Source: Achromatium sp. WMS2 (GTDB taxonomy: Bacteria; Pseudomonadota; Gammaproteobacteria; Chromatiales; Chromatiaceae). From it: DNA of 47,002 bases. The stretch is from contig JXSN01000001.1 in the NCBI GenBank assembly GCA_001276605.1, positions 1-47,002 on the forward strand. The letters run 5' to 3'. This document shows, one piece after another, positions 1 through 47,002 of the stretch. The notes under the pieces are model-generated. The model was given only the letters and a program-made list of their open reading frames with translations, was not told the origin of the DNA and did no database searches. Positions within the stretch are counted from its first letter, which is position 1, and every line of letters begins with the position of its first letter. A program made the translations under genes and the position numbers.

Positions 1-157
<157 letters not shown>

Positions 158-339
158 TTACTTTGGTTGGGGGGATGATAAGGTTAAAATGAAGTTATGT
201 GATAGTTATAGCATAAAATACTAATAGAAAATAGTAGTCTGCTCTGGTTGGGAGCAGAACTTATTGATTTGGTATTAGTCCATTTAATGCTGATCAAAGT
301 CTATGCTTAAGTAGGGAAAAATCCGAGTTGATTATAGGG

Positions 340-1573
<1,234 letters not shown>

Positions 1574-1944
1574 AGTGATTGCAATTTCAATTCCTAAATT
1601 TAAATTTTTAGCTATTCGTTTAGTTGATTATACTCTTATACAATGGAGAACAAAAGCTCAGAGAATATGATTTCTGGCAAACTGATAATTATAATAAGCA
1701 TTTAACTTGGATAAATACTTGTATTTTAAAATAAAGCCCGTTTAAAGTAAAACAGCAATTACTGATGTTGCATTGGTTGAGACCTGAGAGGACCTGATGA
1801 TATGAGGTTCCAAAGACCAATAGCTGATTTTTAATATGGTTGAATATTCAGGTATTCCGTCGGTATTACGATGACCACCGTCATAATCAATTTTATTATG
1901 GTAAAATTTAGCAGGTATGCTATTAAGTCATGAACCTGGTCAGG

Positions 1945-2520: not shown

Positions 2521-2582
2521 AATCTTACTCCTAAAAATTAGGTTAAATAGCTTGTATCAATATTTGACATACATGCAAGAGA

Positions 2583-3494
2583 CTAATGAAAACTAATGCT
2601 GGCATAACTTACAGAATTGGTATATTCCTTAGTTAATTCCCCTGAAGTAGTGTATTTATGCAATGTACCCTGAGTATTGGATTGTAATAGATGTAACAAA
2701 ATTGCCATAGGGTTGATACCACAAGCAGTAATTTTGGTAGATTCAGAATAAAATTCAAATTGTTTGATATTATTAGCAATTAATGCTTGGATCAAACCAT
2801 CATCAAGTTTCTTGAGGCGTTCAGCTATTTTGGAATCAGCTGCAAACGGTAAATAGCCAAACCTAGGTCCATAGTGGGTAAAATCGCTAGATACCACAAT
2901 TAAAGTGCTGGTATCAGCTAAAGGTTGCAACAGCTCGGCTATCATCTTAGCATCATCATGTTGTAAATAACCAACTAATATTGGTAATAGTTGCCAACCA
3001 GGGGTTAGGGTAATCTGCAGAAACGGCAGTTGCATTTCAATGCAGTGTTCCTGGATATGAACCTTGGGATCGGCATTTACTATTGGAGAGCGATACAATT
3101 CGGTAACAGCTGGTTGATCTACAGGAATTAGCCCCAGAGGCGTTGCAAAAGCACTGTAAGGTCCTATAGATAGGCCGTTAAACCTGCCGTAGTGAGCTGG
3201 GCCCAGGATTATTACACGTTTAAAGGTAAGTCCCCGTAAATTTTTATATACCGCACCGGCAGTAATACCGCTGTAAGTGTAACCAGCATGTGGTGATATC
3301 AGGGCACGAATGGGACCAGGGGTTGTGACTGTGGGAACGGTTGTAAGTAAATTGGTAAGATAATTGGTTAGACGGTGGGGATCGTTAGGATACCAGCTGC
3401 CGGCTACAGCGGCTGGTCTTACGTTCGCGGAGGTAGTCCTATTGCTGATCATGTCGATACGCACTGCCAGAATGGTAGTTGGCGCTCCTTGCAA
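2583..3494 (-). CDS. MEMO1-family protein (AmmeMemoRadiSam system protein B-like)
   Basis: Motifs AGSWYP, SPHAGYTYSG, HCIEMQLPFL and SSDFTHYG match the MEMO/dioxygenase-B-like family. The codon at 3494 is TTG; the ATG at 3452 (MISNRTT...) is the more likely start. Confidence 0.8.
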   Translation of the reverse strand: MQGAPTTILAVRIDMISNRTTSANVRPAAVAGSWYPNDPHRLTNYLTNLLTTVPTVTTPGPIRALISPHAGYTYSGITAGAVYKNLRGLTFKRVIILGPAHYGRFNGLSIGPYSAFATPLGLIPVDQPAVTELYRSPIVNADPKVHIQEHCIEMQLPFLQITLTPGWQLLPILVGYLQHDDAKMIAELLQPLADTSTLIVVSSDFTHYGPRFGYLPFAADSKIAERLKKLDDGLIQALIANNIKQFEFYSESTKITACGINPMAILLHLLQSNTQGTLHKYTTSGELTKEYTNSVSYASISFH

Positions 3495-3730
3495 AATTTA
3501 TGGTTTATCAAATCAACATTGTGTTTGCATATCAGCCTAATTATAGACCTTAAATTTATTGGTGATAGCTAATTATTCCTGATAGATCGAATGCTAAACG
3601 GCTATAATGATTATACCATGTATTAAGAGTTATGTTATACCACTAAAGAAGTCTTTGTGCAACTTAACAGCAAAAAATTTAATGATTGTAAACCTTAGGA
3701 CGTATTAATATACAATATTATTATGCCTAT

Positions 3731-3814
3731 GTGCTTGTGGGGATGCAGGAGTATCCCCAGCTGCGTTCCCACGCTGGAGTGTTGGAACTAGCAATAGCCA
3801 TGCTATTACGCTAG
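3731..3814. repeat. REP/MITE-like composite palindromic element (family copy 1)
   Basis: GC hairpin ggggat-N8-atcccc (3739-3758), core gcgttcccacgctggag (3763-3779) and a second palindrome ctagc...gctag. The reverse complement aligns with the copy at 10798-10885. Confidence 0.7.
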
Positions 3815-4327
3815 ATTAATCGCACCTACGGTCTTGTTGCTAAGCTGGAACAAAGGAGTGACTGGAAACTTGCTGGTGGATATTAGAAAAGCTTTGGTGT
3901 TGGGTAGGGCCTGTTTGCTTTTAAACTCATCGATTGTGGCGGTTGTTGGGGCCGTTAACTTGTTATAGTGTTGGTGTATATGATTTTTATATGTAACAAG
4001 CTTTTTAATTTGATTAAATAGTATCAAAGTGTTACATTCTATGCAGCATGTTGCAGGGTTGGAGATTGGCGTGAAGGTTCTATGTTGCTGATTACCTTGC
4101 AATATTATTTTGAATCATGCTATAACCATATGAACTTGCTGATGCTTTTTGAGAAGGCATTACACCTACAAAAGCTAAATGATTTTTTGTTCAATAAAAT
4201 CAAGGAAAAATGTCTAAGCTGGCTCTCAAAAAAAGATATGGTAAAACAACCTAGCTTTTGGGCATTTTTTTAAGATTGATTTTTGCGTTGTGACCTATTG
4301 ATTTGTAAGGGCGAAAAATGGGGGTAA

Positions 4328-4428
4328 GGGGTCGAACGTTTTCCCTGCATGAGAAGGGATTAAGACTAGGTTAAATCCGTTAATTGCCATTTCTGGGTTT
4401 GAACGTTTTCCCTGTATGAGAAGGGATT
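4328..4428. repeat. Two-copy CRISPR-like direct repeat (about 34 nt repeat, about 33 nt spacer)
   Basis: 4328-4361 and 4395-4428 are 31/34 identical (ggg[g/t]t[c/t]gaacgttttccctg[c/t]atgagaagggatt). The period is 67 nt. Each copy has an internal 5-bp stem tccct/aggga. Only two copies are present and there are no cas genes in the window. Confidence 0.4.
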
Positions 4429-4470
4429 CGGGGGGCGCAGGGGCGCCCCGGGCTGCGTTCCTAAGTTGGG
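4429..4470. repeat. REP-like element, partial copy
   Basis: GC hairpin ggggcgc-N-gcgcccc followed by ggctgcgttcc, matching the hairpin plus agctgcgttccc layout at 3741-3770. It abuts the second CRISPR-like repeat. Confidence 0.5.
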
Positions 4471-4841
4471 TTTTGGGCGTGATTAACTTTATGCGAATAG
4501 CGTGCTTGGGAGCTATAAATATACAAAGTTTTTGGCTGTATTCTAATGCCGTGAGCAGAAAACATCATAATCACATGAGTTACAAGTAGTGACTGCAACA
4601 CATGATTTAGCCTATAAAGAAACTGTTTTCGCACCCAGAAATGGTAATTGACCTAATTGATGGTTAGGTAAAGGCAGATTGGGTAAACCAGTTGGACTTT
4701 TTTACTTTAGAACTGATGATTTAAGAGAACGCGAAGATGACGTGATTTGGCGGGTACGCTTTGGCGAAAGTTGGTTTAGACGCTTTTTAAATATCCCAAT
4801 TTAAAATTATCCTGTCATGACTTAGGTCTTATTCCTACTCA

Positions 4842-4868
4842 GTCCGAAAATATATTAGTTTTTCGGAC
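4842..4868 (-). terminator. Hairpin downstream of fur (weak terminator candidate)
   Basis: 9-bp stem gtccgaaaa/ttttcggac with a 9-nt loop, 56 nt past the fur stop. There is no clear U-tract on the minus-strand transcript. Confidence 0.3.
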
Positions 4869-4923
4869 CGCAATATAGGTAGTAAATAATCATATCTAGT
4901 TCCTGAGCATGCGCGAGTATATC

Positions 4924-10710: not shown

Positions 10711-10885
10711 TGTAGGAACGCGGCTATAATTCTAATACTTATCGTTCCTATGTTTCGGCGTCCGCACAAAAATAAAGATTGATCGCTTTATACACCGTGT
10801 AGAAACACAGCCAAAACTCTAATACTGGTCGTTTCTATGCTCCGGCGTGGGAACGCATCCGGGGACGCTCCCCACAAGAACGGTT
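10711..10885. repeat. Two tandem REP/MITE-like composite elements (period 87 nt)
   Basis: Unit 1 (10711-10797) has the hairpin taggaacg-N22-cgttccta and a degenerate core. Unit 2 (10798-10885) has the hairpin tagaaac-N-gtttcta, the core ctccggcgtgggaacgc (10840-10856) and the GC hairpin gggga-cgc-tcccc. Both apical loops carry tctaatac. Confidence 0.75.
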
Positions 10886-10942: not shown

Positions 10943-13564
10943 TTACTTAGGATCCTTAACGGTTGTATCCGCAGGCACAGAATCTTCCTGGGATTTTGGC
11001 ACCGCATTATTCTCTGGTTTAGAAGCTGTCGATACCGATGGTTGAATTACAGGGGCTTGATTTTGCTGTATTTGGACCTGAGTTGGCTGCATTTCCAGTT
11101 GTTGCTGACTTGGATTGGGTGACACAGGCTCCGGATCCGGCGGCGTTGTAGTTTGATCCGGTTGCGGTTCAGGAGCCTGAACTTTAGTCAGGGCCGACTT
11201 TAGGTCTGATTGCGTTAATTTAGCATTAAAATAATCAATAAACAATTCAGCTTGGTGCTTGTGAGTAGGCTCCAAGTTGGTCAATATGGTACGCTGTGTA
11301 GACCAAAAGTCCCAAACGGCGGTACTTTCTGCTGGCCCTTGTTCTATAGCTTGCCATAGTTGCACATATTCTTGTTGTTGAGGATTAGCCAACCAAGAGT
11401 AAAAGCGCACTATGGAGTATTCTTCGGCACCAGGTTGAACCAGGGTCAAGGCCTTGGTCAGGCGGGTATGAAACCGGGTCAGGTCTTTTTGAATTAAAGC
11501 TAATTCTAGGTCATTAACAACTAAGTCTAGATTGTCCGGATCTTTTTGGAGACCAATGACGTGAATGGTTTGGGCTTGAGTTAAATCGCCTGACCACCAC
11601 CAACCAGTTGCTAGTTTAGCCAGTTGTGAAGAATCTAGCTCGTCTTGTTTCGCAGTAACTTGTGTTAATTGGGTACGGGCCTCTTCTGGTATAATTTGAT
11701 CCCGGTGATCCAGAGCTAGTTTTACGCCCAGGTTGAGTTGACCCAAGATGTTATCTTGTGCCGCGGCTTTGCGGTACCAGGATATGGCTTGTTTGGAATC
11801 GGCGGTTACACCTAGGCCGTATTCGTACAACATGCCTATGAAGTTCTGGGCTGTAGCACTGTCTTGATCGGCAGCTAATTGGTACCAGTGCATGGCTTGT
11901 GCGTAATTTTGTTCTACGCCCTGACCATTTTGATATAGGGTGCCAATTAGGGTCTGGGCGAGGGTGCTGCCCTCATTAGCGGCTTGTCGGTACCAATTCA
12001 TGGCGGCGGCGTAATCTTGGGTAACACCTAGGCCTTTGTGATATAAAAGTCCAAGGTTTACTTGAGCATTGGTATGGCCTTGGTCGGCGGCCTTTTGATA
12101 CCATTTGCGGGCCTTGTTGTAGTTTTGCGAGATACCATAACCATTTTCATAGAGGAAGCCGATGTTAAACTGGGCTTGTTTATTATTTTTCGCAGCAGAC
12201 TTGCGGAACCAATGCATGGCCTTTTGGTAATCTTGGTCAACTCCGGAACCTTCTTGATAGAGTTCACCAATCTTGAGTAGTGCCACTGGGTCGTCTTGTT
12301 TGGCTGCCTTTTGGTACCATTCCATAGCCTTATTGTAGTCCTTTGACACACCTAGACCGGTTTGGTAAAGGAGCCCGACGTTTCTTTGAGAGTCAGCATC
12401 ACCATTTAGCGCCGCCTTGTGGTACCAATTGAAGGCCTGCGTATAGTCTTGGTCGACACCAAAGCCGTTGAGGTATAGCTGACCTATATTGAATTGCGCA
12501 GATGGGTAATCTTGGGCAGCCGCTTTTTGATACCAGAGCATAGCCTGTGGATAGTCTTGAGGGACGCCTTTCCCATGTTGATATAGGGTACCGATGGCAT
12601 TTTGGGCTGCTGCTTGATTTTGGCTGGCGGCTTTTTGGAGCCAACGCATGGCCTCGGTGTAATCTTCAGCGACGGCATAGCCGTTGTAATACATGGCGCC
12701 AATTAGGTATTGGGCATCAGCGTTATTGGCTGCGGCTGCTTGGCTGTACCAATATAGGGCGGCTTTGGGATCGGGATATACACTCCAGCCTTTAACAAAT
12801 ATTTTGCCTAAATTATACAGCAGGTTACTGTCGTTACTAAAGGCCTCAATGATGCGATTCTGGAGTCGGCGTTGATCATGGGTATTAGCGCGTTGCCAAA
12901 CTCTAGCTATTACCCGGCCTAGCTCTATTTCCAGTCCCATACCATAGTCATTCAAAAAGGCATTAAGTTTGGCGTCCTTGGCAGACAATGGGCTCCGATT
13001 TACTAGTGCGGATATGGCGGTTTCTGCGGCTGAATCTGGATCATTTAGGACTAATTGGGCATTAGCAAGCTCGCTTTGGTAGGCTAATTTTAGGGCATGG
13101 TCACTGGAGCTATTTACGGCGGCTTGGAAATATTGCAGAGCCGTTTGTGCACTTTTATTGCTTATTACTACAGTGTCATCCAGAGTTTCGGGGAGTTGTT
13201 TGCTTTTAGCTAGATACACGCGCCCCAGTAAAGCCATGAAGCGAGCGGCTTCTCGAACTTCCGTGGGAATTGGTTCGATAAGGGCTATAGCTTGGGCATA
13301 GTGCTCCAGTTTGAAGTGTGATGAAGCTAAAAAGTAGAGTATGTCTTCGCCAGAAGTGGATAGATCTGGATTAGCCGCATGCAGGGCTTCAAGTTCGGTT
13401 AGGGCTTGTGCGTATTTTCCATCTTTATAGTGTTGGATAGCTAGATCAATAGGAACTACCGGGGATTCAGCTATTACTGGTTGTAACCAGCCTATGGTTA
13501 TGGTAACCAGGGCTATGCATAAGTATCCAGATATCCTATGCCGAAGGTGGGTGTAGTTGTTCAT
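10943..13564 (-). CDS. Secreted Sel1-like repeat (SLR/TPR) protein with a Pro/Gln-rich C-terminal tail
   Basis: 873 aa with an N-terminal signal-like segment (LCIALVTITIGWLQPVIA). About 10 consecutive 36-aa units fit AQ..LG.LY..G.GV.QDY..A..WY.KAA. The last 90 aa or so are P/Q/T-rich. Confidence 0.85.
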   Translation of the reverse strand: MNNYTHLRHRISGYLCIALVTITIGWLQPVIAESPVVPIDLAIQHYKDGKYAQALTELEALHAANPDLSTSGEDILYFLASSHFKLEHYAQAIALIEPIPTEVREAARFMALLGRVYLAKSKQLPETLDDTVVISNKSAQTALQYFQAAVNSSSDHALKLAYQSELANAQLVLNDPDSAAETAISALVNRSPLSAKDAKLNAFLNDYGMGLEIELGRVIARVWQRANTHDQRRLQNRIIEAFSNDSNLLYNLGKIFVKGWSVYPDPKAALYWYSQAAAANNADAQYLIGAMYYNGYAVAEDYTEAMRWLQKAASQNQAAAQNAIGTLYQHGKGVPQDYPQAMLWYQKAAAQDYPSAQFNIGQLYLNGFGVDQDYTQAFNWYHKAALNGDADSQRNVGLLYQTGLGVSKDYNKAMEWYQKAAKQDDPVALLKIGELYQEGSGVDQDYQKAMHWFRKSAAKNNKQAQFNIGFLYENGYGISQNYNKARKWYQKAADQGHTNAQVNLGLLYHKGLGVTQDYAAAMNWYRQAANEGSTLAQTLIGTLYQNGQGVEQNYAQAMHWYQLAADQDSATAQNFIGMLYEYGLGVTADSKQAISWYRKAAAQDNILGQLNLGVKLALDHRDQIIPEEARTQLTQVTAKQDELDSSQLAKLATGWWWSGDLTQAQTIHVIGLQKDPDNLDLVVNDLELALIQKDLTRFHTRLTKALTLVQPGAEEYSIVRFYSWLANPQQQEYVQLWQAIEQGPAESTAVWDFWSTQRTILTNLEPTHKHQAELFIDYFNAKLTQSDLKSALTKVQAPEPQPDQTTTPPDPEPVSPNPSQQQLEMQPTQVQIQQNQAPVIQPSVSTASKPENNAVPKSQEDSVPADTTVKDPK

Positions 13565-13853: not shown

Positions 13854-15986
13854 TCATGGATTGGTTAGCCTGGTTATGTGGAAGCTGATATGGTCGGAAT
13901 GACCTTTGGCATCCAGTACTGCTAGGTTCACAGCACCGTCGATATTCGGGGTCCACAGTAGGGTTTGGTTTTGGAGTTGAGCCGCGGTAGGGCGACCGTT
14001 TACCAACAGATACAGTGGCTCTTGTCCACCTGCAACCTCTATGTGGATAGGTGTATTGGCATTGGATGCTAGTTCTAACGTTGAACCAGGGGTGGGGTAG
14101 AGGATTTTAGGACCACGGCTTGAGGGCAGGTGTTTAAATTTTGGGATTATTGGAATTTCGAAATGGCGTAATTTTACTGGTAATTCAGTATTTTGCACTT
14201 GCAATACGTTGGGTGGTATTGGAATTAAGAGTGGATGTAATTGTATTGGTTGCAATAGGGCAAAGATTTCTAGCAATATAGGAACGGCAGAGTGCAATCC
14301 AGAGAGGTTGGTGGTGTAACCATTATCAGGACGTCCTAACCATACTGCTACTGTGTGATTGGCGTCGTAACCCATAGCCCAGGCGTCGCGAAAACCGTAT
14401 GAAGTACCGGTTTTAAAGGCTAGGCGGCGGTTATTGGCAGTAAAACCAGTGGGAGGTTGCGCATCTGCCAATATATCTGTTACGTACCAAGTTGCAGTTG
14501 CGGATAACACATTAATATGGGTTAGGGTTTCTGGTGTAATATTGGTATTAGATTGTAAAAATTGCAGTTCTCGCATTGTACCGGCGTTGGCAAGGCTGGC
14601 GTACAGTCGGACTAGATCCTCCATTCTAATCCCAACTCCGCCTAGGGCTATAGCTAGATTAGGGCGGGTGCGATTTAATGGTAAATGCAGTTTAGTTCCG
14701 GCTGCGTTGAGTCTGGATACCAAGTAATTGGAACCTAGACGATTAAGAATTTTAATCGCTGGAATGTTGCGGGAGGTCCACAGGGCCTCGCGCACGCGAA
14801 TTTCACCATGATAACGGTGGTCGAAATTGCCAGGTGCATAGTTGCGCACCGGACCAGGGCGGTCAAAAATTAGGGTTTCAGGGTGGATAAGATCACGGTC
14901 AAAGGCTAGGCCATAGATAAAGGGTTTGATGGTTGATCCTGGTGAGCGTATGGCACGCGCCATATTGATTTGTCCAGGATAGGTTTTAGAGAGAAAGTTG
15001 CTGGAACCTATGTAAGTTTGCACTTGCCAAGTGTGATTATCCAATATAATAGCTGCCAAAGTAACGCCTGGAGTTTGTTGGTGTTGGCGGTGTCTCAGGA
15101 TAGTTTCTACCTTGCGCTGTAGAACCAGGTCTATGGTAGTTGCAATCCGCTGAGCATTGGGGTTAATGTGGCGTAATCTATCACTTAAATGGGGTGCTAA
15201 CCTTGGAGTAGGGATCCGATGGCTGGGGATGGGAATAGCTAGAGTGCGGGTCGCATCTTGGGGGCTAATTGCGCCTGAGGTCATCAGGCGTTGTAACACT
15301 TTGGCGCGTCCTGAGATGGCGTATTTGTGGATACGGTCAGGCCGTCGTGATTCCGGGGCTTGGGGAATGGCAATGAGAAGTGCTATTTCGGCTAGGGTTA
15401 GGAATTTGGGATCCTTGTCGAAATAAAATAAGCTTGCGGCACGTATCCCTTGAATGTTACCGCCATACGGGGCTAGAGTGAGGTATAGGGCTAGGATTTG
15501 TTGCTTAGATAGAGCGGTTTCCAGGCGGATTGCATTGTATATTTCTATGAGTTTCGAACTAATAGTGCGGGGACGCGGTTGTAGCAGGCGCACTGTTTGC
15601 ATAGTTATAGTAGAGGCGCCAGATACCAACCGGCCCGTGGTAAGAACTTGTCCAATAGCCCTAAATATCGCTGTTATGTCGACACCTATGTGTTGGTAAA
15701 AATTTTTATCTTCGTAGCTAAGTAGTAATTCTATAAAGTGTGGATCTAGATCCTCTAGTCGAGCTGGTAGACGCCAGTAGCCGTCCTTGGTCGTGTATAA
15801 ACGCAATAATTTACCTGATTTATCTAGTATTTCTACCGAATAGTCCAGATTAGTTGCTGGGAGTGGTAGCCACCAGTTGGCCATTAGTACGAGTATAAAA
15901 ATAATTGGGGTAGCATAAAAAATTACTCGTCTTAAGTGTCTAAATTTTACAAATAAAATCCTAATAGTTTGATTTTTAAGGAACAT
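13854..15986 (-). CDS. pbpC: Penicillin-binding protein 1C (bifunctional glycosyltransferase/transpeptidase)
   Basis: 710 aa with an N-terminal TM anchor, the GT51 motifs EDKNFYQHIGVD and RLETALSK, the transpeptidase motif SPGSTIKP (SxxK), and a C-terminal PBP1C-type extension. Confidence 0.85.
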   Translation of the reverse strand: MFLKNQTIRILFVKFRHLRRVIFYATPIIFILVLMANWWLPLPATNLDYSVEILDKSGKLLRLYTTKDGYWRLPARLEDLDPHFIELLLSYEDKNFYQHIGVDITAIFRAIGQVLTTGRLVSGASTITMQTVRLLQPRPRTISSKLIEIYNAIRLETALSKQQILALYLTLAPYGGNIQGIRAASLFYFDKDPKFLTLAEIALLIAIPQAPESRRPDRIHKYAISGRAKVLQRLMTSGAISPQDATRTLAIPIPSHRIPTPRLAPHLSDRLRHINPNAQRIATTIDLVLQRKVETILRHRQHQQTPGVTLAAIILDNHTWQVQTYIGSSNFLSKTYPGQINMARAIRSPGSTIKPFIYGLAFDRDLIHPETLIFDRPGPVRNYAPGNFDHRYHGEIRVREALWTSRNIPAIKILNRLGSNYLVSRLNAAGTKLHLPLNRTRPNLAIALGGVGIRMEDLVRLYASLANAGTMRELQFLQSNTNITPETLTHINVLSATATWYVTDILADAQPPTGFTANNRRLAFKTGTSYGFRDAWAMGYDANHTVAVWLGRPDNGYTTNLSGLHSAVPILLEIFALLQPIQLHPLLIPIPPNVLQVQNTELPVKLRHFEIPIIPKFKHLPSSRGPKILYPTPGSTLELASNANTPIHIEVAGGQEPLYLLVNGRPTAAQLQNQTLLWTPNIDGAVNLAVLDAKGHSDHISFHITRLTNP

Positions 15987-18713: not shown

Positions 18714-19028
18714 TTATGAATTTTCGATGTTTAGATCCGGATCCCATCCTGCACTGCGGGCCGCGGCTATGGCTTGAGTATAGATGCGCTGATGACGTTC
18801 TCGCAGTACCGGCGGTAGATTGGACACTAGGTGGCCATAGGGCTCCCAAGCGGCGCTAACCTTGTCGTACAGGCTTTCGAGCCCCTGGGTAGTCCAGCCG
18901 GTGCAGTCTTCGCTTTCGTCAAGAAGACCAAATACCCAAGCATCGCGAATGATGTTGCCAGTAGGTCCCATTCCGGCGTAGGGAGCTACCTTAAGTCCAG
19001 TGTAAATTTTGGTTTTAGACATTGTCAT
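18714..19028 (-). CDS. Hypothetical protein (about 104 aa)
   Basis: The ORF opens at GTG 19151, but ATG codons at 19028 and 19022 (MTMSKTKIY...) are more plausible starts. No recognisable motif. It ends 39 nt upstream of the ldtD-like gene on the same strand. Confidence 0.45.
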   Translation of the reverse strand: MTMSKTKIYTGLKVAPYAGMGPTGNIIRDAWVFGLLDESEDCTGWTTQGLESLYDKVSAAWEPYGHLVSNLPPVLRERHQRIYTQAIAAARSAGWDPDLNIENS

Positions 19029-31079: not shown

Positions 31080-32114
31080 GTGTTGGATAATCAGATAATG
31101 TTTAATTTCATCTCTAAAAGGCGTGGCCGCTCCAGGATACGTAGTCCGGGGCGCATTGACAGCAACGCGGCCAATTGGCTTAGACCTTGTTACGATGAGT
31201 TAGTCTGGAAACTGGAATTAATTGATGTTGCCAATGTATTTGACGCCGATGCTTTGTGGGATATTCGGCATACTGGAGGTAAACGTGGTTGTCAGATCGT
31301 CGAATTAGACAGCAAAAGGGCCGAGCGGCGCCTGTGCCTAGCCTTGCAAGATCATCGCAATTACAAAAGTACTCAAAACATATTTGCTTCAGGCAGTTAT
31401 CATGAAAATAGGTGTTTTACTGATATCATAATGTGCATATCTCATTTAGATTGGAATCGCGACCTAAATGAGCACGATGGCAATAACATTAAACAGGTAA
31501 TCAGCAATCTTTGTTGGCATCACATGCAAGATTTTAGGGGTAGTCTACCCCCTAAACGTCCACCTCGCTACCTAATTCGCCCCGATACCAGCGTAGCACC
31601 TAACCATGTGGTGTTTTGGTTTGGAGCTGGAATTTACCTCCCAGCCATGCATGAACACCCCAAACTGCATATTACCACTAAAATTGATAAGATGCTACAA
31701 AAAGTAATTTGGGCTTCAGGATTTTGTGCCTACGGTGTTACAGACAACAATGAACATTATGATACAGTAACCAGCATTGTACATGAATTTACTAGATCTA
31801 TGGGATTTTACTCTGACCAGTATGGAATGCTTCTGACTCCACACAACCAAGGTCCAATACCCATCGCAACCTGGCAGGCAGGTACAGGCAGTTATCTGTT
31901 CATTCGACGCTCCGATGCCAATGAACTGGTAGCTGAAACTGGAAGCAATTCCGGTTTTAAGGCCTGGTATTATCGTAAACTTGGAACCGCATGGTACTTG
32001 GGCATAAGCCCAAATCCAGAAAATACTGATCAAGAATTTTCTATAGTATTGGATTATTTACATGCAGCAAAGGACAATACTGACAGGGATAAAACCCTGC
32101 TAGGTGGCGCTTAA
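31080..32114 (+). CDS. Hypothetical protein (344 aa, Cys/His/Trp-rich, basic N-terminus)
   Basis: Long ORF with a GTG at 31080 and an ATG at 31098. No family recognised, and no TM segment or signal peptide evident. Confidence 0.55.
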   Translation: MLDNQIMFNFISKRRGRSRIRSPGRIDSNAANWLRPCYDELVWKLELIDVANVFDADALWDIRHTGGKRGCQIVELDSKRAERRLCLALQDHRNYKSTQNIFASGSYHENRCFTDIIMCISHLDWNRDLNEHDGNNIKQVISNLCWHHMQDFRGSLPPKRPPRYLIRPDTSVAPNHVVFWFGAGIYLPAMHEHPKLHITTKIDKMLQKVIWASGFCAYGVTDNNEHYDTVTSIVHEFTRSMGFYSDQYGMLLTPHNQGPIPIATWQAGTGSYLFIRRSDANELVAETGSNSGFKAWYYRKLGTAWYLGISPNPENTDQEFSIVLDYLHAAKDNTDRDKTLLGGA

Positions 32115-39585: not shown

Positions 39586-41628
39586 TTAGCTGCTTACTGT
39601 ACTAACATTACCATCTTGATCGCAAGTGACCCGGTTCACAATCTGCAAACATTGCGCTGTATGAGTAGGGGATATGGTAACTGGTTGCGGGTATTCTAAT
39701 TTGCATTGAGGTACCATTTGAGGACAACGCGGATGGAAGTGGCAACCCGATGGTGGATTGGCTGGTGAAGGTAAATCCCCTTCGAGGCGGATAGGCGCAG
39801 GTTTACCAGTGCTATCTATCACTGGCACCGCGGACAACAGGGCCCTGGTATAGGGATGTTGTGGATTTTCTAAAACTTCGTTGGCTAATCCATGCTCTAC
39901 AATGCGCCCTAAATACATAACCGCCACTTCATGGGCTAAATAAGCAACTACAGAAATATTATGTGTGATAAAAAGGTAAGATAGGCCCAGTTTCACCTGC
40001 AAGTCTTTTAATAAATTAAGAATTTGTGCTTGTACTGAAACATCCAAAGCACTAGTTGGTTCATCACATACAATGAGCTTAGGACTAACTGCTAAAGCCC
40101 TAGCAATACAGATGCGCTGCCGTTGCCCCCCGGAAAATTCATGCGGATAACGTTGCGCCGCAGTTTCAGTTAATCCCACCTGTTGTAACAGTTGTTGGAC
40201 CTTAAGGCGCCGCTCGTTTTTATTCTTACCTATGCCTTGGGATACAAGACCTTCGGCTACTATGTCCTCAACCAACATTCGTGGATTCATAGAAGAAAAT
40301 GGATCTTGAAAAATTATTTGCAAATTACGGCGCAACGGTCGTAATTGGGACGCGGTTAATTTGGTTAATTCCTGATCAGCAAAGGTGATAGAACCTGCGG
40401 TGGGACGAATTAATTGTAAGATAGCTTTGCCGACTGTAGTTTTTCCACAACCAGATTCACCAACCAATGCCACAGTTTGGCCGGTTTTTACCGTCAACGA
40501 CACTCCATCTACAGCTTTGACTTGACCGCGGGTAGCCTGCAATAATCCACTGCGAATTGGGAAATATACGCGCAAATCATTTACTGCTAATATCGGTTCA
40601 ACTTTAGCTTGTTTAACAACATCTTGTATCGGATTCCTAAGTGTTTGAGTTTGCTTATCCTGTTGAGACCACAGATGACAGCGCACCCCCCCATCTGCAT
40701 GTGTGCTCCAAGCTGGCAATTGCTCGTGGCATATTGTTTGCGTTAATTCGCAACGTTCAGCAAAACGACACCCCATGAATTTACTGTTTAACGGTGGTAC
40801 AATACCCCGGATTACAGCTAAAGGTTGATCGCGTTTGCTAGCATCGGGTAAGGCGGCAAATAGTTTGCGGCTGTATGGGTGAAATGGGGATTTAAAAAAT
40901 TGGTCGCAAGCTGCCTGTTCAACTATTTGTCCGGCATACATAACCGCCAAACGATCTGCTGTTTCCGCGACTACTCCTAAATCATGGGTGATAAGTAACA
41001 CCGCCATGCCTATTTCACGCTGCAAATCTTTCAATAAGCGTAACACTTGGGCTTGAATAGTTACATCCAGTGCGGTAGTCGGTTCATCGGCTATCAATAA
41101 TTGAGGCTTACCAGCTAGAGCCATGGCAATCATAATACGCTGTTTCATTCCACCAGATAACTGATGTGGATATTCGTGCAGCCGCCGTTGCGCATCCGGA
41201 ATTCCCACCGCATCCAGCAACTCTAAAACCCGCAATTTATTGTTTTTGTCACCTCGATTATCATGTAATTCTACCGCCTCGATAATTTGCTTGCCCACTG
41301 TCATTACAGGGTTAAGGGAGGTTTGGGGTTCCTGAAAGATCATAGCCATGCGTCCGCCACGCATGCGACGCATATCGCGCTCTGGAAGATCTAGTATATC
41401 TACCCCGTTTCCAAGTATTATGTTGCCTTGCACTATGCGGCCTGATGGCGGTAATAGGCGCATTAATGACAAAGCCGTCATAGATTTACCACAACCTGAT
41501 TCACCTAATAAAGCAAAAGTTTCGCCCGGTTGTAGGGTCAAGTCGACTCCGTCTACCACCCGTGCCGGTGGATTGGTCGTACTTAATTGTGTGGTTAAAT
41601 TTTTGATTTGTAATATAGGATTGGACAT
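39586..41628 (-). CDS. Fused double ABC-type ATPase of the oligopeptide/dipeptide/nickel (DppD-DppF/YejF/GsiA-like) class
   Basis: 680 aa with two Walker A sites (GESGCGKS twice) and two signatures (LSGGMKQR, FSGGQRQR). Each half is followed by an oligo_HPY-type tail (HPYSRKL / HPYTRALL) and a Cys motif. No permease or binding-protein gene is adjacent. Confidence 0.85.
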   Translation of the reverse strand: MSNPILQIKNLTTQLSTTNPPARVVDGVDLTLQPGETFALLGESGCGKSMTALSLMRLLPPSGRIVQGNIILGNGVDILDLPERDMRRMRGGRMAMIFQEPQTSLNPVMTVGKQIIEAVELHDNRGDKNNKLRVLELLDAVGIPDAQRRLHEYPHQLSGGMKQRIMIAMALAGKPQLLIADEPTTALDVTIQAQVLRLLKDLQREIGMAVLLITHDLGVVAETADRLAVMYAGQIVEQAACDQFFKSPFHPYSRKLFAALPDASKRDQPLAVIRGIVPPLNSKFMGCRFAERCELTQTICHEQLPAWSTHADGGVRCHLWSQQDKQTQTLRNPIQDVVKQAKVEPILAVNDLRVYFPIRSGLLQATRGQVKAVDGVSLTVKTGQTVALVGESGCGKTTVGKAILQLIRPTAGSITFADQELTKLTASQLRPLRRNLQIIFQDPFSSMNPRMLVEDIVAEGLVSQGIGKNKNERRLKVQQLLQQVGLTETAAQRYPHEFSGGQRQRICIARALAVSPKLIVCDEPTSALDVSVQAQILNLLKDLQVKLGLSYLFITHNISVVAYLAHEVAVMYLGRIVEHGLANEVLENPQHPYTRALLSAVPVIDSTGKPAPIRLEGDLPSPANPPSGCHFHPRCPQMVPQCKLEYPQPVTISPTHTAQCLQIVNRVTCDQDGNVSTVSS

Positions 41629-41699
41629 AATGGTCCTAATATTGGGTAAATAACTTTAAAAAATATATTTCAGCAAATAAAATTATGCAGCAATTTAAC

Positions 41700-42092
41700 T
41701 TATAGCTGTGCTACAGTATCACGGATTAATTCCAGAGACGGAGGTTTTTGAATAAAGGCATTGGCACCCAATTTTTTGCACAGTTCCCTATCGTCTGGAT
41801 TGACTGACGAGGTAATAACTATGACAGGAATCGCCTTAGTATCGGTTCTTTTTTTAATCTCTTGTAGGATATCATACCCATTAATCCCCGGCATATTCAG
41901 ATCAAGAAATATAAGGAGGTGATCGGGGCGTTTTTGCACCTCACTAAATAAAAAGTTCCAGGCATCACTGCTGCGCTTCATAACCATAATGGGATTTCTC
42001 ACCCCCATTTCACGCAGAAATATTTCGATTAAGCGAGCCTGAGCGCGATTATCCTCGACAATCAAAATATTTAGGTCGTTAAGTATATGCAT
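41700..42092 (-). CDS. Single-domain response regulator (CheY-like receiver)
   Basis: GGAGG sits 5 nt before the ATG at 42092. The protein reads MHILNDLNILIVEDN...LIFLDLNMPGINGYD...VIVITSS and has no output domain. The longer ORF to 42122 lacks an RBS. Confidence 0.88.
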   Translation of the reverse strand: MHILNDLNILIVEDNRAQARLIEIFLREMGVRNPIMVMKRSSDAWNFLFSEVQKRPDHLLIFLDLNMPGINGYDILQEIKKRTDTKAIPVIVITSSVNPDDRELCKKLGANAFIQKPPSLELIRDTVAQL

Positions 42093-42240
42093 AATGCCTC
42101 CAGCCGACGCGTATATTTCCAAGATCTTGCTCTTAGGTACGATTAAAGTAGCGTAATCGCACGTTTTTTTATTAACGCCAACTTGGATTAGGCTTAATGA
42201 TTATCGTTACGCTTATCCAAAAAGAATTTTAAGGAAATAA

Positions 42241-44112
42241 CTACGCAGCTTCTAACTTGTGTAACCGTAGTGTAAAAAAGAAAGTACTTCCGGATCCGGA
42301 CTGAGTTTTAACCCAAATGCGTCCACCATGTTGCTCAATGATATGTTTGCATATGGCCAAACCAGCTCCCGTACCAGGATAAGTATCTTTAGCATGAAGC
42401 TTTTTAAACATCAAAAAAATTTGCCCAGTAAGACCTGGATCAAAACCAATGCCATTATCACTTATTGATATAACACATTCATTACTCGTTACTTCTACTC
42501 CAATATGCACGCGTGGAACAACATTTTTTTGAGCGTATTTGATTGCATTATCCAGAATATTAGTAAATACAAATTCTATCAAATGGCAGTCGATATATGC
42601 TGCTGGTAGAGGATCTTTACTAATGATAGTACCAGTGGCCGAAATCCTTTCTTGAATGTTTGCAAGTGCTATGTTCAAGGGAATATCTAGAGCAGTTATT
42701 ACATAATCACCTGGTTTAGAGCCAATTTTAGCATATATCAACATATCTCGCGTCATTTCCTTCATATTTTGCACGCTTTCCTGAATAAAATCAATGAATT
42801 CATTTGCATCCTTATCCAACTGCTCCCGATAATGACTATTCAGCAGTTGTAAATAAGGCTGTATAACATCCAGAGGTTCATTAAGATCGTGCGAAGCGAT
42901 ATAAGCAAATTGGCGTAATTCTTCATTATAAAGCTTAAGTGCAGCATTTTTTTCTGCTAAAATATCCTTACTTTTACTTAATTCCGTAGTCATGGCTTTG
43001 GCTAATTCCTCAGCCCGTTTTTGCTGCCTAGATATGGAACCGATTATAACAAATAACAGCAAATCAACTACCATTCCGCCAATAGCAACTAACATTGGTT
43101 GCCCAGATTCTACGGGAGAAATATAGGACGGGTATGAAAAAAGCCTTAAGGTCCAGGTATGACCACCAAATACCAAAGGTTCGGTGGTTAAGAAATCCGG
43201 CTTTGGATTTGAAAAAACAGCATTAGTATCACTTTTATACAACAAATGTTCGGAATTAATGCTCTTGCCATCAAAGATTTCAAAACCAACATCTGCCATT
43301 CCTACTCCCAATATCCCTTGCATTAAATCTTTGATTCGAAATGGACTATACACTACACCATACCAAGAATTGCGGCGCTCGGCCACAGTTTCAAGGGGAG
43401 AGTTTTCTGTATACAGTGGCAAGTACATAAGAAAACCTTGTTGGATATCAGTTTCAGTTTCTTGGACTAATGTCACCATACCAGAAACAGCCATTAGACC
43501 AGTATCCCGAGCGCGCTCCATTGCCAACCGACGTACTGGGTTCGAAAACATGTCATAACCAAAAGCGCGTTGATTACGAAAATCAAAGGGTTCTAAATAA
43601 ATAATTGCAGTATACACAGCCCGGTTTCCTTCTGGATATATGCGATAATTATGAAAACCTTGGCTGCGAATGGCATTATTATGGACCTCTACGTCTTCGG
43701 GCTGTACCACCAGGCTATGCCCTATGCCCTGAATTCCAGGAAAATAGCGATCAATATTTAATGTATTGACATAGATATGCCATTGATCACGGCTAACATG
43801 CCCGTGATTGGCTTGAAAAAAGCCAACACCGCCGCGTAATACAGATTCGTATTCCAACATGCGCCTATTAATAGCATTTTTAATATCCGTAGACTCAAAC
43901 TTAAATCGATCCGCAGCCCTGGCCAGCATAGCTTGATTGGAAATACTCCAGGCTATCGCTGTCAATATGGTAGAAACAATCAAAATAATCCAAGCCGCGG
44001 CCGGATGATTTAACATTCGCAAACATGCACATCCTACATTATAAATACCGGTAATTATCTGCTGTACTGAAATAATTATTGAATATATTGACAGTATTGT
44101 ATGTTTATACAC
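42241..44112 (-). CDS. CHASE-domain sensor histidine kinase
   Basis: TM - CHASE (FGYDMFSNPVRRLAMERARDTG...VTLVQE) - TM - HisKA (ASHDLNEPL) - HATPase (GTGAGLAICK). The GTG at 44112 lies 1 nt after the upstream kinase stop; the alternative ATG at 44016 (MLNHPAAAW...) directly precedes TM1. Confidence 0.85.
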   Translation of the reverse strand: MYKHTILSIYSIIISVQQIITGIYNVGCACLRMLNHPAAAWIILIVSTILTAIAWSISNQAMLARAADRFKFESTDIKNAINRRMLEYESVLRGGVGFFQANHGHVSRDQWHIYVNTLNIDRYFPGIQGIGHSLVVQPEDVEVHNNAIRSQGFHNYRIYPEGNRAVYTAIIYLEPFDFRNQRAFGYDMFSNPVRRLAMERARDTGLMAVSGMVTLVQETETDIQQGFLMYLPLYTENSPLETVAERRNSWYGVVYSPFRIKDLMQGILGVGMADVGFEIFDGKSINSEHLLYKSDTNAVFSNPKPDFLTTEPLVFGGHTWTLRLFSYPSYISPVESGQPMLVAIGGMVVDLLLFVIIGSISRQQKRAEELAKAMTTELSKSKDILAEKNAALKLYNEELRQFAYIASHDLNEPLDVIQPYLQLLNSHYREQLDKDANEFIDFIQESVQNMKEMTRDMLIYAKIGSKPGDYVITALDIPLNIALANIQERISATGTIISKDPLPAAYIDCHLIEFVFTNILDNAIKYAQKNVVPRVHIGVEVTSNECVISISDNGIGFDPGLTGQIFLMFKKLHAKDTYPGTGAGLAICKHIIEQHGGRIWVKTQSGSGSTFFFTLRLHKLEAA

Positions 44113-44113
44113 T

Positions 44114-46606
44114 TTAAGCTGCCATTAGGGTAAAAAAGAATGTTGTACCCTGCCCCACGGTGCTTTCTAACCAGATAGTACCTCCGTGCCGCTCCACGAT
44201 TCGCTTACATAGTGCCAAACCAATACCTGTCCCCTCATATTCTTCAACATCATGTAATCTTTGAAATATAGCGAATATTTTTTCAAAAAAACGCGATTCA
44301 ATCCCAATACCATTATCCTGAACAGCAAAATGCCACAACTTCTTGAGTTTTTGTACACGAATATTGATGCGGGGGGCTTGTGTTTTATTGCGATACTTAA
44401 TTGCATTGCTTAAGATATTTTGAAATAAATGAATTAGTTGACCACGATCACCCAGCACAATTGGCCACTCATCTGGCATGGTCATGGTAGTTTTACTCTC
44501 TTCAATAGCCAAAACCAAATTCTCAATAGCCACATGAATAATTTCATAGCTATTAACCGGTAGTAAATGTTTGCCTTTGGTATTAATACGTGAAAAATCC
44601 ACTAAATCACGAATCATACACGACATGTGTTGGGTGCCGTCCGTAATAAACTCCATAAATTCTTGCGATTCACCATCAAATTTTCCCTGATTACGCTGAG
44701 CAAGTAGGTTGGCAAAGCTAGTTATCGTGCGTACTGGCTCTTGCAAATCGTGGGAGATAGTATACACAAAACGTTGCAATTCCTTGTTAGATTCCATAAG
44801 TGCCGCTTCTATCTGTTTACGAGAACTAATATTTTCCTTTACCGCAACAAAATGTGTGATTTTATTTGCAGAGTTTCTAAGAGGAGATATTGATATAGAT
44901 TCCCAGAATAATGTGCCATCTTTAGCTTTATTATGCAGCTCACCACGCCATACTTTTCCAGACAAAATGGTGTACCATAATTCCTCGTATGTAAACTGGG
45001 GCATTGTGCCAGATTTTAAAATACGCGGATTTTGACCAATTGCTTCTTTTATACTATACCCAGTTACTTCGGTAAACCTCGAATTAACATACTCAATAGC
45101 ACCTTTGCAATCAGTTATTACCACAGATGATGGATTCTGTTCGATAGCAGTTAAAAATTTGCGTAGCTCGGCTTCCAACGCCAGACGTTGCGTAATATCC
45201 CTAAATACTACCACGGCCCCTATAATTTGATCATCGTCTACAACCGGCGCACTAGTGTATTCCACAGGAAAATAACTACCATCTTTGCGCCAAAATATAT
45301 CATCGGCTGAATGGTGAACTTCGCCATCCTCAATAGAAATGTAAATAGGACATTGCATACGAGGATATGGAGTACCATCCGCCCTGGAGTGGTGCAAAAT
45401 ATCATGCTGATCTTGCCCATACAAGTCAGTAATTTCCCATCCCGTCATGCGTACAGTAGCATTATTTGCAAAAGTCGTAATTCCGTTTCTATCTAATCCA
45501 TAAATACCATCTCCTGCAAAATTAAGAATTAATTCATTATATTTTTTCACATATTCTAGTTCAGAAGTACGTTCATTCACTAATTCTTTTAAAATAACGC
45601 TGCGTCCAGATACTATCAACACAAAAATTCCGGTTATACCTGTTAAAAGCAAGCCTACTACAAGTATAAGCCATGCACTTGCTGAACGATTGGCGTAAAA
45701 ATATATTTGATTGGCATTTACCTCAAGACGCCATTCTCTTTGTGCAAAAGGAATATATAAGGAGTAATTTAGTTGAATATTATAATCAAATAAACGTGTA
45801 GTCTGTGTAGGAAGCTTTTGGCGTACTCCACTGGGTGAACTTACAAATAATATTTGTTTATTTGAGGGATCAGTATAATCAATTAGTTGATAATACAGCT
45901 CTTTAGTATTCATATATGATATAATTTCATTCAGAATGATTTTCTCGCGCAACACCGCCACTAAGTAGCCTTTTAGATTACGCCGACGTTCTGCCACCGT
46001 ATTATGCAACCGTCCGTGTTGATACAATGGTAGAAAGACTAAAATTCCAAACTGGTCGCCAGTTTCTTGAACTAAGCGCAACTTACCCGTGGCCACAGCT
46101 TTGTCACTATCTCGTGCTTGCTCTAAAGCATTAGATCTTTGCAGTTGCGAGGCAACATCATAGCCCAAAGCTGCTTTGTTCTCTTGGTATGGCTCTATAT
46201 ATTGAACCGGAACATACTTAGGACGTGCGGTAGCCAGCGCAAGCTGACCATTTTGATCTATTTGTTTGATATGAAAGTCGGGCAAGTTTATTTGGCGCAT
46301 GCTATCTTCAAACGCCGCACGTTGATCCGCAGTTATTAATGGATTCCAGGATAAAGCGGATAAACTTGGGAAATAAATTGATAGTCTAGAAGCAAAAATG
46401 CGAAATTCATCTTGGCTTACATGTTGGGAAGCGTCAAAAAAACTCCTTAAAGAATGCAGAGCTTCGACAACATGCGAGTAGAGAGAATGTTCAATTTGTG
46501 ATCTTAAAATTGTAATATGCTGTTCCAAGCGTAGCCTTAAATCTTTGCGTTCCCAAGCTAGGCTACTAGCTGTCATGATAATTGTGATAGACAGAACCAC
46601 TATCAA
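44114..46606 (-). CDS. CHASE - PAS - PAS sensor histidine kinase; 5' end interrupted by the fold-back junction
   Basis: CHASE (LGYDVASQLQRSNALEQARDS...LRLVQE), TM, two PAS modules, HisKA (ISHDLQEPV) and HATPase (GTGIGLALCK). The called TTG start at 46606 sits 20 nt inside the junction at 46626/46627, so the true N-terminus is probably longer. Confidence 0.8.
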   Translation of the reverse strand: MIVVLSITIIMTASSLAWERKDLRLRLEQHITILRSQIEHSLYSHVVEALHSLRSFFDASQHVSQDEFRIFASRLSIYFPSLSALSWNPLITADQRAAFEDSMRQINLPDFHIKQIDQNGQLALATARPKYVPVQYIEPYQENKAALGYDVASQLQRSNALEQARDSDKAVATGKLRLVQETGDQFGILVFLPLYQHGRLHNTVAERRRNLKGYLVAVLREKIILNEIISYMNTKELYYQLIDYTDPSNKQILFVSSPSGVRQKLPTQTTRLFDYNIQLNYSLYIPFAQREWRLEVNANQIYFYANRSASAWLILVVGLLLTGITGIFVLIVSGRSVILKELVNERTSELEYVKKYNELILNFAGDGIYGLDRNGITTFANNATVRMTGWEITDLYGQDQHDILHHSRADGTPYPRMQCPIYISIEDGEVHHSADDIFWRKDGSYFPVEYTSAPVVDDDQIIGAVVVFRDITQRLALEAELRKFLTAIEQNPSSVVITDCKGAIEYVNSRFTEVTGYSIKEAIGQNPRILKSGTMPQFTYEELWYTILSGKVWRGELHNKAKDGTLFWESISISPLRNSANKITHFVAVKENISSRKQIEAALMESNKELQRFVYTISHDLQEPVRTITSFANLLAQRNQGKFDGESQEFMEFITDGTQHMSCMIRDLVDFSRINTKGKHLLPVNSYEIIHVAIENLVLAIEESKTTMTMPDEWPIVLGDRGQLIHLFQNILSNAIKYRNKTQAPRINIRVQKLKKLWHFAVQDNGIGIESRFFEKIFAIFQRLHDVEEYEGTGIGLALCKRIVERHGGTIWLESTVGQGTTFFFTLMAA

Positions 46607-46626
46607 AGGTGCAGATACGGTAAATT
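46459..46626. repeat. Left arm of a perfect 168-bp inverted repeat
   Basis: Exact reverse complement of 46835-47002, checked base by base. Confidence 0.95.
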
Positions 46627-47002
46627 CTGAGCTTTTTTGCTTGGGGTATAGGCAGCTGTATTATTAATGCCACTGTTGGAGCCTTGATTTTACTCATTGC
46701 CGGTAGCATTCCGCAACAAAATTTTATCCTTAATTTTGCCATGTGGTGGATTGGAGATGCCACCGGCGTGTTTATTTTTACCCCATTGACCCTAGTCTGG
46801 TTGCTACGATCCCACGTCGCGTGGCAAGGCAGACAATTTACCGTATCTGCACCTTTGATAGTGGTTCTGTCTATCACAATTATCATGACAGCTAGTAGCC
46901 TAGCTTGGGAACGCAAAGATTTAAGGCTACGCTTGGAACAGCATATTACAATTTTAAGATCACAAATTGAACATTCTCTCTACTCGCATGTTGTCGAAGC
47001 TC
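46624..47002 (+). pseudogene. 5'-truncated, inverted second copy of the kinase 5' region (MASE1-like C-terminal segment + TM + start of CHASE), open to the window end
   Basis: The open + frame after TAA (46621-46623) reads ILSFFAWGIGSCIINATVGALILLIAGSIPQQNFILNFAMWWIGDATGVFIFTPLTLVWLLRSHVAWQGRQFTVSAPLIVVLSITIIMTASSLAWERKDLRLRLEQHITILRSQIEHSLYSHVVEA. It has no start codon of its own before the repeat. Confidence 0.6.
46835..47002. repeat. Right arm of the perfect inverted repeat (cut by the window end)
   Basis: Exact reverse complement of 46459-46626. Confidence 0.95.

Follow-up and report, generated by a model that had tools for sequence, protein, structure and literature searches.

A perfect inverted repeat at the end of the longest contig in the single-cell genome of Achromatium sp. 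WMS2 is probably an inverted chimera from multiple displacement amplification

The sequence analyzed here (the window) is the longest contig, 47,002 bp, of the single-cell draft genome of Achromatium sp. WMS2 (Mansor et al. 2015, PMC4530308), and its GC content of 42.6% compares with the 43% listed for WMS2 in the same publication. The contig carries chromosomal housekeeping genes. Its right end is occupied by a fold-back, i.e., two inverted arms around a short spacer, which has as neighbors genes for a CHASE kinase, a response regulator, an ABC ATPase, and a GGDEF-EAL protein. The WMS2 genome was obtained by phi29 multiple displacement amplification (MDA), MiSeq sequencing, and assembly with IDBA-UD, with k raised by 2 at each step to a maximum of 201 (PMC4530308). 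For comparison, we used the independent Logan assembly (k=31) of the same run, SRR1771715. The features at the two ends of the contig are as follows (window coordinates).

200..203, no strand: left side of a second inverted junction, located in the atpB-atpE spacer; Logan contig SRR1771715_2343 alone carries it, the deposited contig does not
1470..1473, no strand: partner side of the second inverted junction, coinciding with the end of Logan contig SRR1771715_721 (window 1470-4172)
44114..46626, minus strand: body of a sensor histidine kinase gene (transmembrane helix before CHASE, then CHASE, PAS, PAS, HisKA, and HATPase_c), native, its 5' side truncated by the junction at 46626
46459..46626, minus strand: left arm; it matches 46835-47002 exactly in reverse complement and represents, in its native place, the 168 nt that follow the spacer (FTVSAPLIVVLSITIIMTASSLAWERKDLRLRLEQ...HVVEA)
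46626..46627, no strand: sole non-native (chimeric) junction, marked by stop codons on both strands at the join, the end of a k=31 contig at 46626, and branching in a toy graph
46627..46834, plus strand: spacer, 69 codons for the C-terminal part of MASE1 that natively lie upstream in the kinase gene, here flipped with respect to the gene body on its left
46835..47002, plus strand: right arm, the duplicate of the arm, with a native connection to the spacer; it stops at the contig end

An exact fold-back had been claimed for these arms by a reading of the sequence alone, and our recomputation gave identity at all 168 positions between 46459-46626 and the reverse complement of 46835-47002. A perfect inverted repeat of this length cannot have arisen by chance. 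A repeat finder returned the same pair of arms, or 177 nt at 98% if they are extended 9 nt inward. Complementarity inward of the arms is at chance level, with a mismatch at the first base and 5 of the first 9 bases matching. The spacer between the arms (46627-46834) measures 208 nt, and no further copy of the arm was detected within the 47,002-nt window. On the left, the arm runs on unbroken into the rest of the kinase gene in both the deposited and the Logan assemblies. On the right it is cut at position 47002, as had been remarked before; since the window is the entire contig, this edge is a true contig terminus.

Only one of the two boundaries of the spacer is out of place. Over 46627-47002 the plus-strand frame is open throughout and reads ...NFAMWWIGDATGVFIFTPL...GRQ|FTVSAPLIVVLSITII..., and the alignment of homologues shows that the RQ|F motif is kept across 46834|46835. 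Because homologues are conserved across this boundary, it is native. The minus-strand kinase frame, by contrast, meets stop codons immediately upstream of 46626. There, the arm end ...GGTAAATT abuts the spacer start CTGAGC..., while the native next base would be G (GTCTGCC...). In the deposited contig ...GGTAAATT directly precedes CTGAGCTTTTTTGCTTGGGGTATAGGCAGC, and the 40-mer spanning the join (window 46607-46646) is AGGTGCAGATACGGTAAATTCTGAGCTTTTTTGCTTGGGG. Thus, 46626|46627 is the single non-native join, connecting positions 208 nt apart on opposite strands, that is, an inverted join of less than 10 kb, as for MDA inverted chimeras. On the minus strand, the native locus is shown to consist of U (the missing N-terminal codons of MASE1), S (46627-46834 reversed), A (the arm), and the rest of the kinase. 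The sequence-only reading had taken the spacer for the natural 5' continuation of the kinase gene, attached to the minus-strand copy the wrong way round, and both points hold, given the conserved RQF, a MASE1 profile match running into CHASE, and the stops directly upstream of 46626.

The affected gene belongs to the MASE1-CHASE sensor histidine kinases. The spacer matches positions 113-183 of the 299 in the Pfam MASE1 profile and continues into CHASE. The native sequence can be restored by joining window 1-46626 to the reverse complement of 46627-46834, which yields a 5'-incomplete gene of 906 codons with the order MASE1-CHASE-PAS-PAS-HisKA-HATPase. In the reconstructed 906-aa protein, CHASE scored 165 bits, PAS 95.6, HATPase_c 94, and HisKA 38 against Pfam. 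MASE1, partial and restricted to profile positions 113-183, reached 30.2 against a gathering cutoff of 29.8, so that MASE1, CHASE, HisKA, and HATPase_c all exceeded their Pfam gathering scores. Remote homologues at 25 to 41% identity share this N-terminal MASE1-CHASE architecture. By tblastn, their residues ~126-170 match 46654-46788, and by alignment and tblastn, the preceding ~125 N-terminal MASE1 residues are encoded nowhere in the window. Compared with such kinases, the deposited gene is therefore deprived of the first part of MASE1, with ~125 residues off the contig and 69 present but flipped. An ordinary gene start at 46606, which had been named beforehand as the sign of a native arrangement, is absent: the TTG at this position lies inside a transmembrane helix with no Shine-Dalgarno upstream, and the protein starting from it falls ~195 N-terminal residues short of its homologues. 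Exact searches with four start-codon variants of the kinase found no match in the protein collection; one possibility is that the gene was treated as a pseudogene in the record.

Inverted repeats flanking a short segment are also what a programmed invertible segment would present, in this case a site-specific inversion switch toggling the 5' end of the kinase. This reading is effectively refuted, as there is no recombinase or invertase nearby, each arm consists of ordinary coding sequence over at least 168 nt and is not a short recombination site, and neither orientation of the spacer completes the gene, because the N-terminal part of MASE1 is absent. A hairpin telomere of a linear replicon was considered as well and rejected, since the 208-nt center is not palindromic but in-frame kinase coding sequence and the contig has chromosomal housekeeping genes.

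We looked for the missing upstream sequence and for an intact counterpart of the locus. The first 30 nt of the spacer gave 0 exact matches in the genome contig collection, from which the source contig itself is absent, and this exact spacer search provided no neighboring contig with the U-S arrangement. Comparison of the reconstructed N-terminal 461 aa to metagenome and genome contigs returned only remote homologues (27 to 41% identity) and no orthologous locus. The protein homologue search found no close orthologue, with a best identity of 34%, and no U-S protein in the protein collection. A contig carrying U and overlapping the spacer by k-1 would have appeared in the latter search, and for one lacking this overlap no adjacency to the spacer could be established. 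Rfam and tRNA scans of the whole window were negative. As for the loop unitig expected at this fold-back, 268 nt long, no complete open reading frame of at least 30 aa fits inside it.

The independent assembly bears on the origin of the join. Logan contig L020 is identical (100%) to window 40618-46626 and stops exactly at the junction base, 46626. With Logan breaks found about once per 5 kb, the odds of coincidence at this exact base are roughly 2 in 10,000. In a toy de Bruijn graph, position 46626 had an out-degree of 2 (C/G) only when the fold-back k-mers were included, while the native-only model ran on. Together, the k=31 break and the toy graph indicate that the junction k-mers were in the reads, and hence that the junction was present in the amplified DNA and was not invented by the assembler, a conclusion drawn from assembled contigs and the graph model. 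De Bruijn assemblers cannot create junction k-mers absent from the reads. This weighs against the idea that the sample contained no chimeric molecule and that IDBA-UD made the mis-join computationally, through hairpin traversal or local assembly. So does the position of the break in the independent assembly, built with another k: it falls exactly where a chimeric and a native continuation part, and such a break requires reads of both kinds. We consider such a mis-join highly improbable, even if it would fit the position at the contig end and an arm equal to k-1 for a plausible k. What these two properties do indicate is that the behavior of the assembler shaped the visible feature. In the toy graph with k=169, an undocumented value that we infer, the contig runs out of new k-mers precisely at 47002.

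The reading that we favor, with a probability of about 0.8, is that the fold-back is an inverted chimera generated during phi29 MDA of the single WMS2 cell and carried into the contig end by the assembler. A nascent strand copying the antisense strand (rest'-A'-S') would have come off its template where S begins (first base), and its 3' end might then have re-primed 208 nt behind itself on a same-sense strand, at the S/A boundary. Extension would have given rest'-A'-S'|A-rest, the reverse complement of which is the rest'-A'|S-A of the contig. Once amplified, the chimeric molecule would have dominated local coverage, leaving the true upstream U underrepresented. IDBA-UD would then have taken the chimeric edge through S into the arm, halting after k-1 = 168 bases because all k-mers beyond that point had already been used as their reverse complements. 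If it stopped at k-1, the arm length and the zero divergence between the arms reflect the assembly, not a duplication. IDBA-UD did choose the chimeric path over the native U-S path, which implies that the native link was weak or absent in the reads, although a real rearrangement predicts the same.

Inverted chimeras of MDA form with short complementarity, 2 to 21 nt, at the priming site. At 46626|46627, the first inward base is mismatched, and a proper scoring of microhomology at this join needs the native U. The sister junction in the WMS2 library (see below) has 4 nt. In other respects, the fold-back resembles the inverted chimeras described by Lasken and Stockwell (2007, BMC Biotechnol 7:19) and Lu et al. 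(2023, PMC9984789), in which two segments of one locus are likewise joined in inverted orientation in phi29-amplified DNA; the WMS2 template was itself amplified in this way from one cell. Among MDA chimeras, 85% are inverted, mostly between segments less than 10 kb apart (PMC1855051). The distances of inverted chimeras peak at 250 to 300 nt (PMC9984789), so that the 208 nt found here is near the reported mode and well below 10 kb. A difference is that typical MDA junctions are rare reads that are filtered out, whereas this one was abundant enough to be built into the deposited contig and to interrupt a second, independent assembly. Palindromic MDA reads are pervasive (PMC13265396), and fold-back contig ends from amplified DNA show the same terminal inverted repeat, derived from an inverted chimeric path in the graph with the second arm truncated where k-mers repeat. 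Those reports concern mainly long or whole-palindromic reads, while the WMS2 case is a short-read IDBA-UD contig with a unique loop of 208 nt. The strand switch could also have taken place after MDA, at library construction, for instance by snap-back self-priming in end repair or by ligation of fragments from the same locus. The resulting A'-S-A topology would be no different, single-stranded DNA abounds in hyperbranched MDA product, and our data do not separate the step at which the strand was switched. However, a library-step junction is a one-off molecule, with a k-mer abundance normally too low to survive error removal by two assemblers, while one formed during MDA is amplified again, and we regard a library origin as very unlikely. 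Fold-back ends in assemblies of amplified DNA are reportedly dealt with by Nurk et al. in 2013, in connection with the single-cell mode of SPAdes.

A second inverted junction was found at the other end of the contig. In the Logan contig that carries it (L021), positions 1-1300 match window 200-1499 in reverse complement, followed, from 1297 to 1326, by window 1470-1499 in forward orientation. The two segments thus share a 4-nt overlap or microhomology, ATCA, around a loop of ~1.27 kb, with the same topology as the fold-back at 46626|46627. This junction coexists with the native atpB-atpE adjacency, which is retained in the deposited contig.

The main biological alternative is a genuine fold-back inverted duplication or inversion breakpoint, produced by in vivo template switching or recombination on some or all of the ~300 chromosome copies of the hyperpolyploid cell and truncating the kinase. 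Achromatium cells are reported to contain ~300 nonidentical chromosomes with rearranged synteny (PMC7947748), which gives a true structural variant a non-trivial prior. The junction was physically in the sequenced DNA, as judged from the Logan break and the toy graph, the assembler found no stronger native path, and the protein collection lacked a U-S protein, all of which a real rearrangement would accommodate. Natural fold-backs from template switching during replication also have an identical A'-S-A topology and a short unique spacer. Nevertheless, they persist in unamplified DNA, their arms diverge, and they are not tied to contig ends, and the context in WMS2 points to an artifact: the DNA was amplified by MDA, which yields exactly such a topology at such distances, the arms show zero divergence and lie at a contig terminus, and another inverted junction is found, beside its native counterpart, at the opposite end of the contig. 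Moreover, both copies of the gene would be nonfunctional, because ~125 N-terminal codons are missing, and no transposase or recombinase adjoins the repeat. We therefore regard a genuine duplication as unlikely, and a variant present on a subset of the ~300 chromosomes of the one cell, with the junction at the other end as a second such event, as quite unlikely too. If true, it would show directly that template switching during replication had made the chromosomes within one cell structurally heterozygous, and a real junction would provide a concrete example for the debated intracellular genome heterogeneity of Achromatium. The sequence-only reading had offered either a genuine inverted duplication or a chimera of amplification or assembly, leaning toward the artifact. 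That preference is now backed by the MDA of one cell, the true contig end, the independent break at the junction base, and the second junction, with the duplication retained at the low probability just given.

Rather than a biological feature, the fold-back is almost certainly an error at one end of a publicly deposited contig, and its value is mainly one of curation: the last 376 bp of the longest contig in this public Achromatium single-cell assembly are chimeric. The kinase should be annotated as 5' incomplete, its true 5' extension being the reverse complement of 46627-46834. In screens of WMS2 or other MDA assemblies for structural variants, inverted repeats, or "terminal repeats," such ends are false positives. 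An artifact of this type can be diagnosed without reads, by an independent small-k assembly from the same run that breaks at the junction base together with an arm length of k-1.

At its right end the contig JXSN01000001.1 folds back on itself, and the elements involved are the following.

46459-46626, left arm (A')
46627-46834, spacer (S), 208 nt
46835-47002, right arm (A)
44114-46606, minus strand, sensor histidine kinase ORF

The arms, described in the sequence-only reading as exact reverse complements, were confirmed as such at 168 of 168 positions on recomputation, and a repeat finder agreed. No further copy of the arm was found elsewhere in the 47-kb window. The spacer shows no self-complementarity, with a mismatch at the first inward base and matches at chance level thereafter. 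To the question of whether the contig terminates here, the answer is positive, as the window is the entire 47,002-bp contig and the right arm ends at its true end. This is the longest contig of WMS2 (Mansor et al. 2015, Table 2), an organism listed under Thiotrichales, and its GC content is 42.6%, against the 43% given there for WMS2. Its gene content is that of an ordinary chromosome (atpB, feoB, citrate synthase, a class A PBP, gshB, parC, topA, and signalling proteins).

Spacer and right arm form one open plus-strand frame, as had been claimed (no stop in 46627-47002). A kinase of 906 residues was reconstructed from the plus-strand reading of the spacer followed by the minus-strand reading of the gene body; it has partial MASE1, CHASE, two PAS, HisKA, and HATPase_c domains, in that order. 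The MASE1 match, which covers profile positions 113-183 of 299 (30.2 bits), lies in the spacer and runs into CHASE, an architecture also present in remote homologues. Since these homologues align unbroken where spacer and arm meet (RRRQ-FSV of the remote MASE1-CHASE homologue P0001, for instance, lies opposite GRQ-FTV here), the join 46834/46835 is native, and the spacer proves to be the natural 5' continuation of the kinase, as proposed from the sequence alone. The join 46626/46627 is non-native. A TAA codon precedes it on the plus strand and stop codons in the kinase frame lie just upstream of the arm on the minus strand, bearing out the wrong orientation of the spacer relative to the minus-strand copy. 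The candidate start at 46606 is not an ordinary one, being a TTG inside the pre-CHASE transmembrane helix with no ribosome-binding site. Homologues extend ~125 MASE1 residues farther upstream than the spacer start; by tblastn, their residues ~126 to 170 matched 46654-46788 and residues 1 to 125 matched nothing in the window. The absent N-terminal residues, together with the stops, therefore indicate a single chimeric junction, with the native sequence upstream of S missing. No close orthologue was found (best identities of 34% in the protein collection, 41% in JGI metagenome contigs, and 34% in GTDB genomes), and the first 30 nt of the spacer had no match in the genome contig collection.

Directly downstream of the affected kinase, with one base between them, lies a second CHASE-HisKA-HATPase sensor kinase (42241-44112, minus strand), and a 140-aa response regulator is also found downstream, within 41700-44112. 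Together these form a tandem CHASE-kinase signalling cluster, and no close homologue of either kinase turned up in the searched collections.

Mansor et al. 2015 (Front Microbiol 6:822; PMC4530308) cite the reads (run SRR1771715); they picked single Achromatium cells by hand, used phi29 multiple displacement amplification (MDA), sequenced by MiSeq with 25 nt trimmed from reads, and assembled with IDBA-UD using k steps of two up to 201. In Logan, an independent k=31 assembly of this run, contig SRR1771715_264 (6,009 bp) is 100% identical to window 40618-46626 and ends precisely at 46626, beyond which the chimeric (C) and native (G) continuations part. A toy de Bruijn graph at k=31 reproduced this end, with an out-degree of 2 (C/G), when the fold-back k-mers were present; with the native arrangement alone the unitig continued past 46626. 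With ~9 Logan breaks over the 47-kb window, the odds of one falling by coincidence on that exact base are ~2 in 10,000. The junction is therefore physically present in the sequenced DNA, which makes a purely computational join unlikely.

A second fold-back adjoins the left end, so that an inverted junction is found next to each end of this contig. In Logan contig SRR1771715_2343 (1,326 bp), window 200-1499 comes first, reverse-complemented, and 1470-1499 follows in the forward direction; the two parts have 4 nt, ATCA, in common at the join (200-203 and 1470-1473). SRR1771715_721, spanning 1470-4172, terminates exactly at 1470. The topology is the same A'-S-A, with a loop of ~1.27 kb. As the deposited contig retains the native path here (after atpB, atpE begins within window 1-199, as read from the sequence), both joins coexist in the read set, and the library therefore contains inverted junctions of this kind at high relative abundance. 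The two fold-backs would fit an amplified region with coverage collapsing beyond both fold-back points.

The length and perfect identity of the arms can be attributed to the assembler. The deposited contig has no 169-mer reverse-complementary to an earlier one, and at k=167 or 168 the first revisited k-mer begins at 46835, so the contig ends at its last novel 169-mer and the arm measures k-1. The odd k series used (step 2, reaching 201) contains 169, although Mansor et al. 2015 do not give the final k and this value is our inference. On that value, arm length and zero divergence would be the product of walking through a hairpin loop, uninformative on the age of any duplication.

We consider the right-end fold-back to be an inverted chimera from MDA that IDBA-UD carried into the contig end, with a probability of roughly 0.8. 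In 10.9 Mb of MDA reads from single E. coli cells, Lasken and Stockwell (2007; PMC1855051) counted 495 chimeras, 85% of them inverted and most joining segments <10 kb apart; 76.8% of junctions, and 93.5% of the inverted ones <10 kb, showed complementarity of 2 nt or more. A 2023 review (PMC9984789) places the mode of inverted-chimera distance at 250 to 300 nt. The distances here, 208 nt and ~1.27 kb, and the 4-nt overlap at the left junction are typical values. A genuine inverted duplication is conceivable in a hyperpolyploid organism with ~300 differing chromosomes and reported rearrangements (PMC7947748), and the native link upstream of S is evidently weak in the data. However, the topology is a known product of the amplification method used, inverted and native joins occur side by side at the left end, the feature sits at a contig terminus, both kinase copies would be left truncated, and the neighbourhood has no mobile element or recombinase; we regard it as improbable. 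A chimera made at the library step and a purely computational join are each highly improbable, and an invertase switch is close to negligible.

The single inverted junction at the right end, present in MDA-amplified DNA, could have arisen if a nascent strand copying rest'-A'-S' (rest, the kinase gene body beyond the arm; prime, reverse complement) came off its template at the first base of S and re-primed 208 nt behind itself on a like-sense strand, at the S/A boundary, extension then giving rest'-A'-S' joined to A-rest. IDBA-UD would have taken the chimeric edge because this product had presumably out-amplified the native region. The artefact, one of the origins offered by the sequence-only reading, is thus supported by amplification method, sister junction, contig terminus, and independent break at 46626, and we class the fold-back, at the end of a contig in a public single-cell genome, among the known artefacts of laboratory work and assembly. 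Repair would consist of joining window 1-46626 to the reverse complement of 46627-46834 and annotating the kinase as 5'-incomplete. The case has some value for curation and screening methods.

More k=31 Logan breaks occur where IDBA-UD assembled through, at 4172, 8930, 14999-15028, 18885-18903, 39097, and 40618. The two checked, 39097 and 40618, showed no repeated 31-mer in the window. Any of these breaks may mark a further chimeric junction, a branch between alleles, or a repeat lying elsewhere in the genome.

The whole 47-kb chromosomal window contains no tRNA genes and no Rfam families at gathering threshold. An unusually long 1.4-kb stretch without an ORF of at least 150 aa (3495-4923), with no Rfam match, holds two 34-nt direct repeats (4328-4361 and 4395-4428; 67 nt apart, 91% identity), each with an internal TTCCCT...AGGGA hairpin, and a GC-rich palindrome follows the pair. 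The layout is similar to that of a CRISPR remnant with two repeats or of a REP/MITE-like element. An imperfect inverted pair (3748-3796 and 10823-10871; 49 nt, 76%) shares the core GCGTTCCCACGC...GGAGC, to which the motif GCTGCGTTCC at 4453-4462 is similar, and the three may belong to a dispersed family of short intergenic repeats. The ORF at 10943-13564 (minus strand) encodes an 873-aa Sel1-repeat protein, with a 108-nt period at 11754-12703 in at least 8 DNA copies of 60 to 72% identity. Over 14.8 kb, the deposited contig and Logan differ at one base, 31784 (minus strand, A in the contig versus G in Logan), within an unannotated 344-aa ORF (31080-32114), which could reflect allelic heterogeneity within a polyploid cell or an amplification error.
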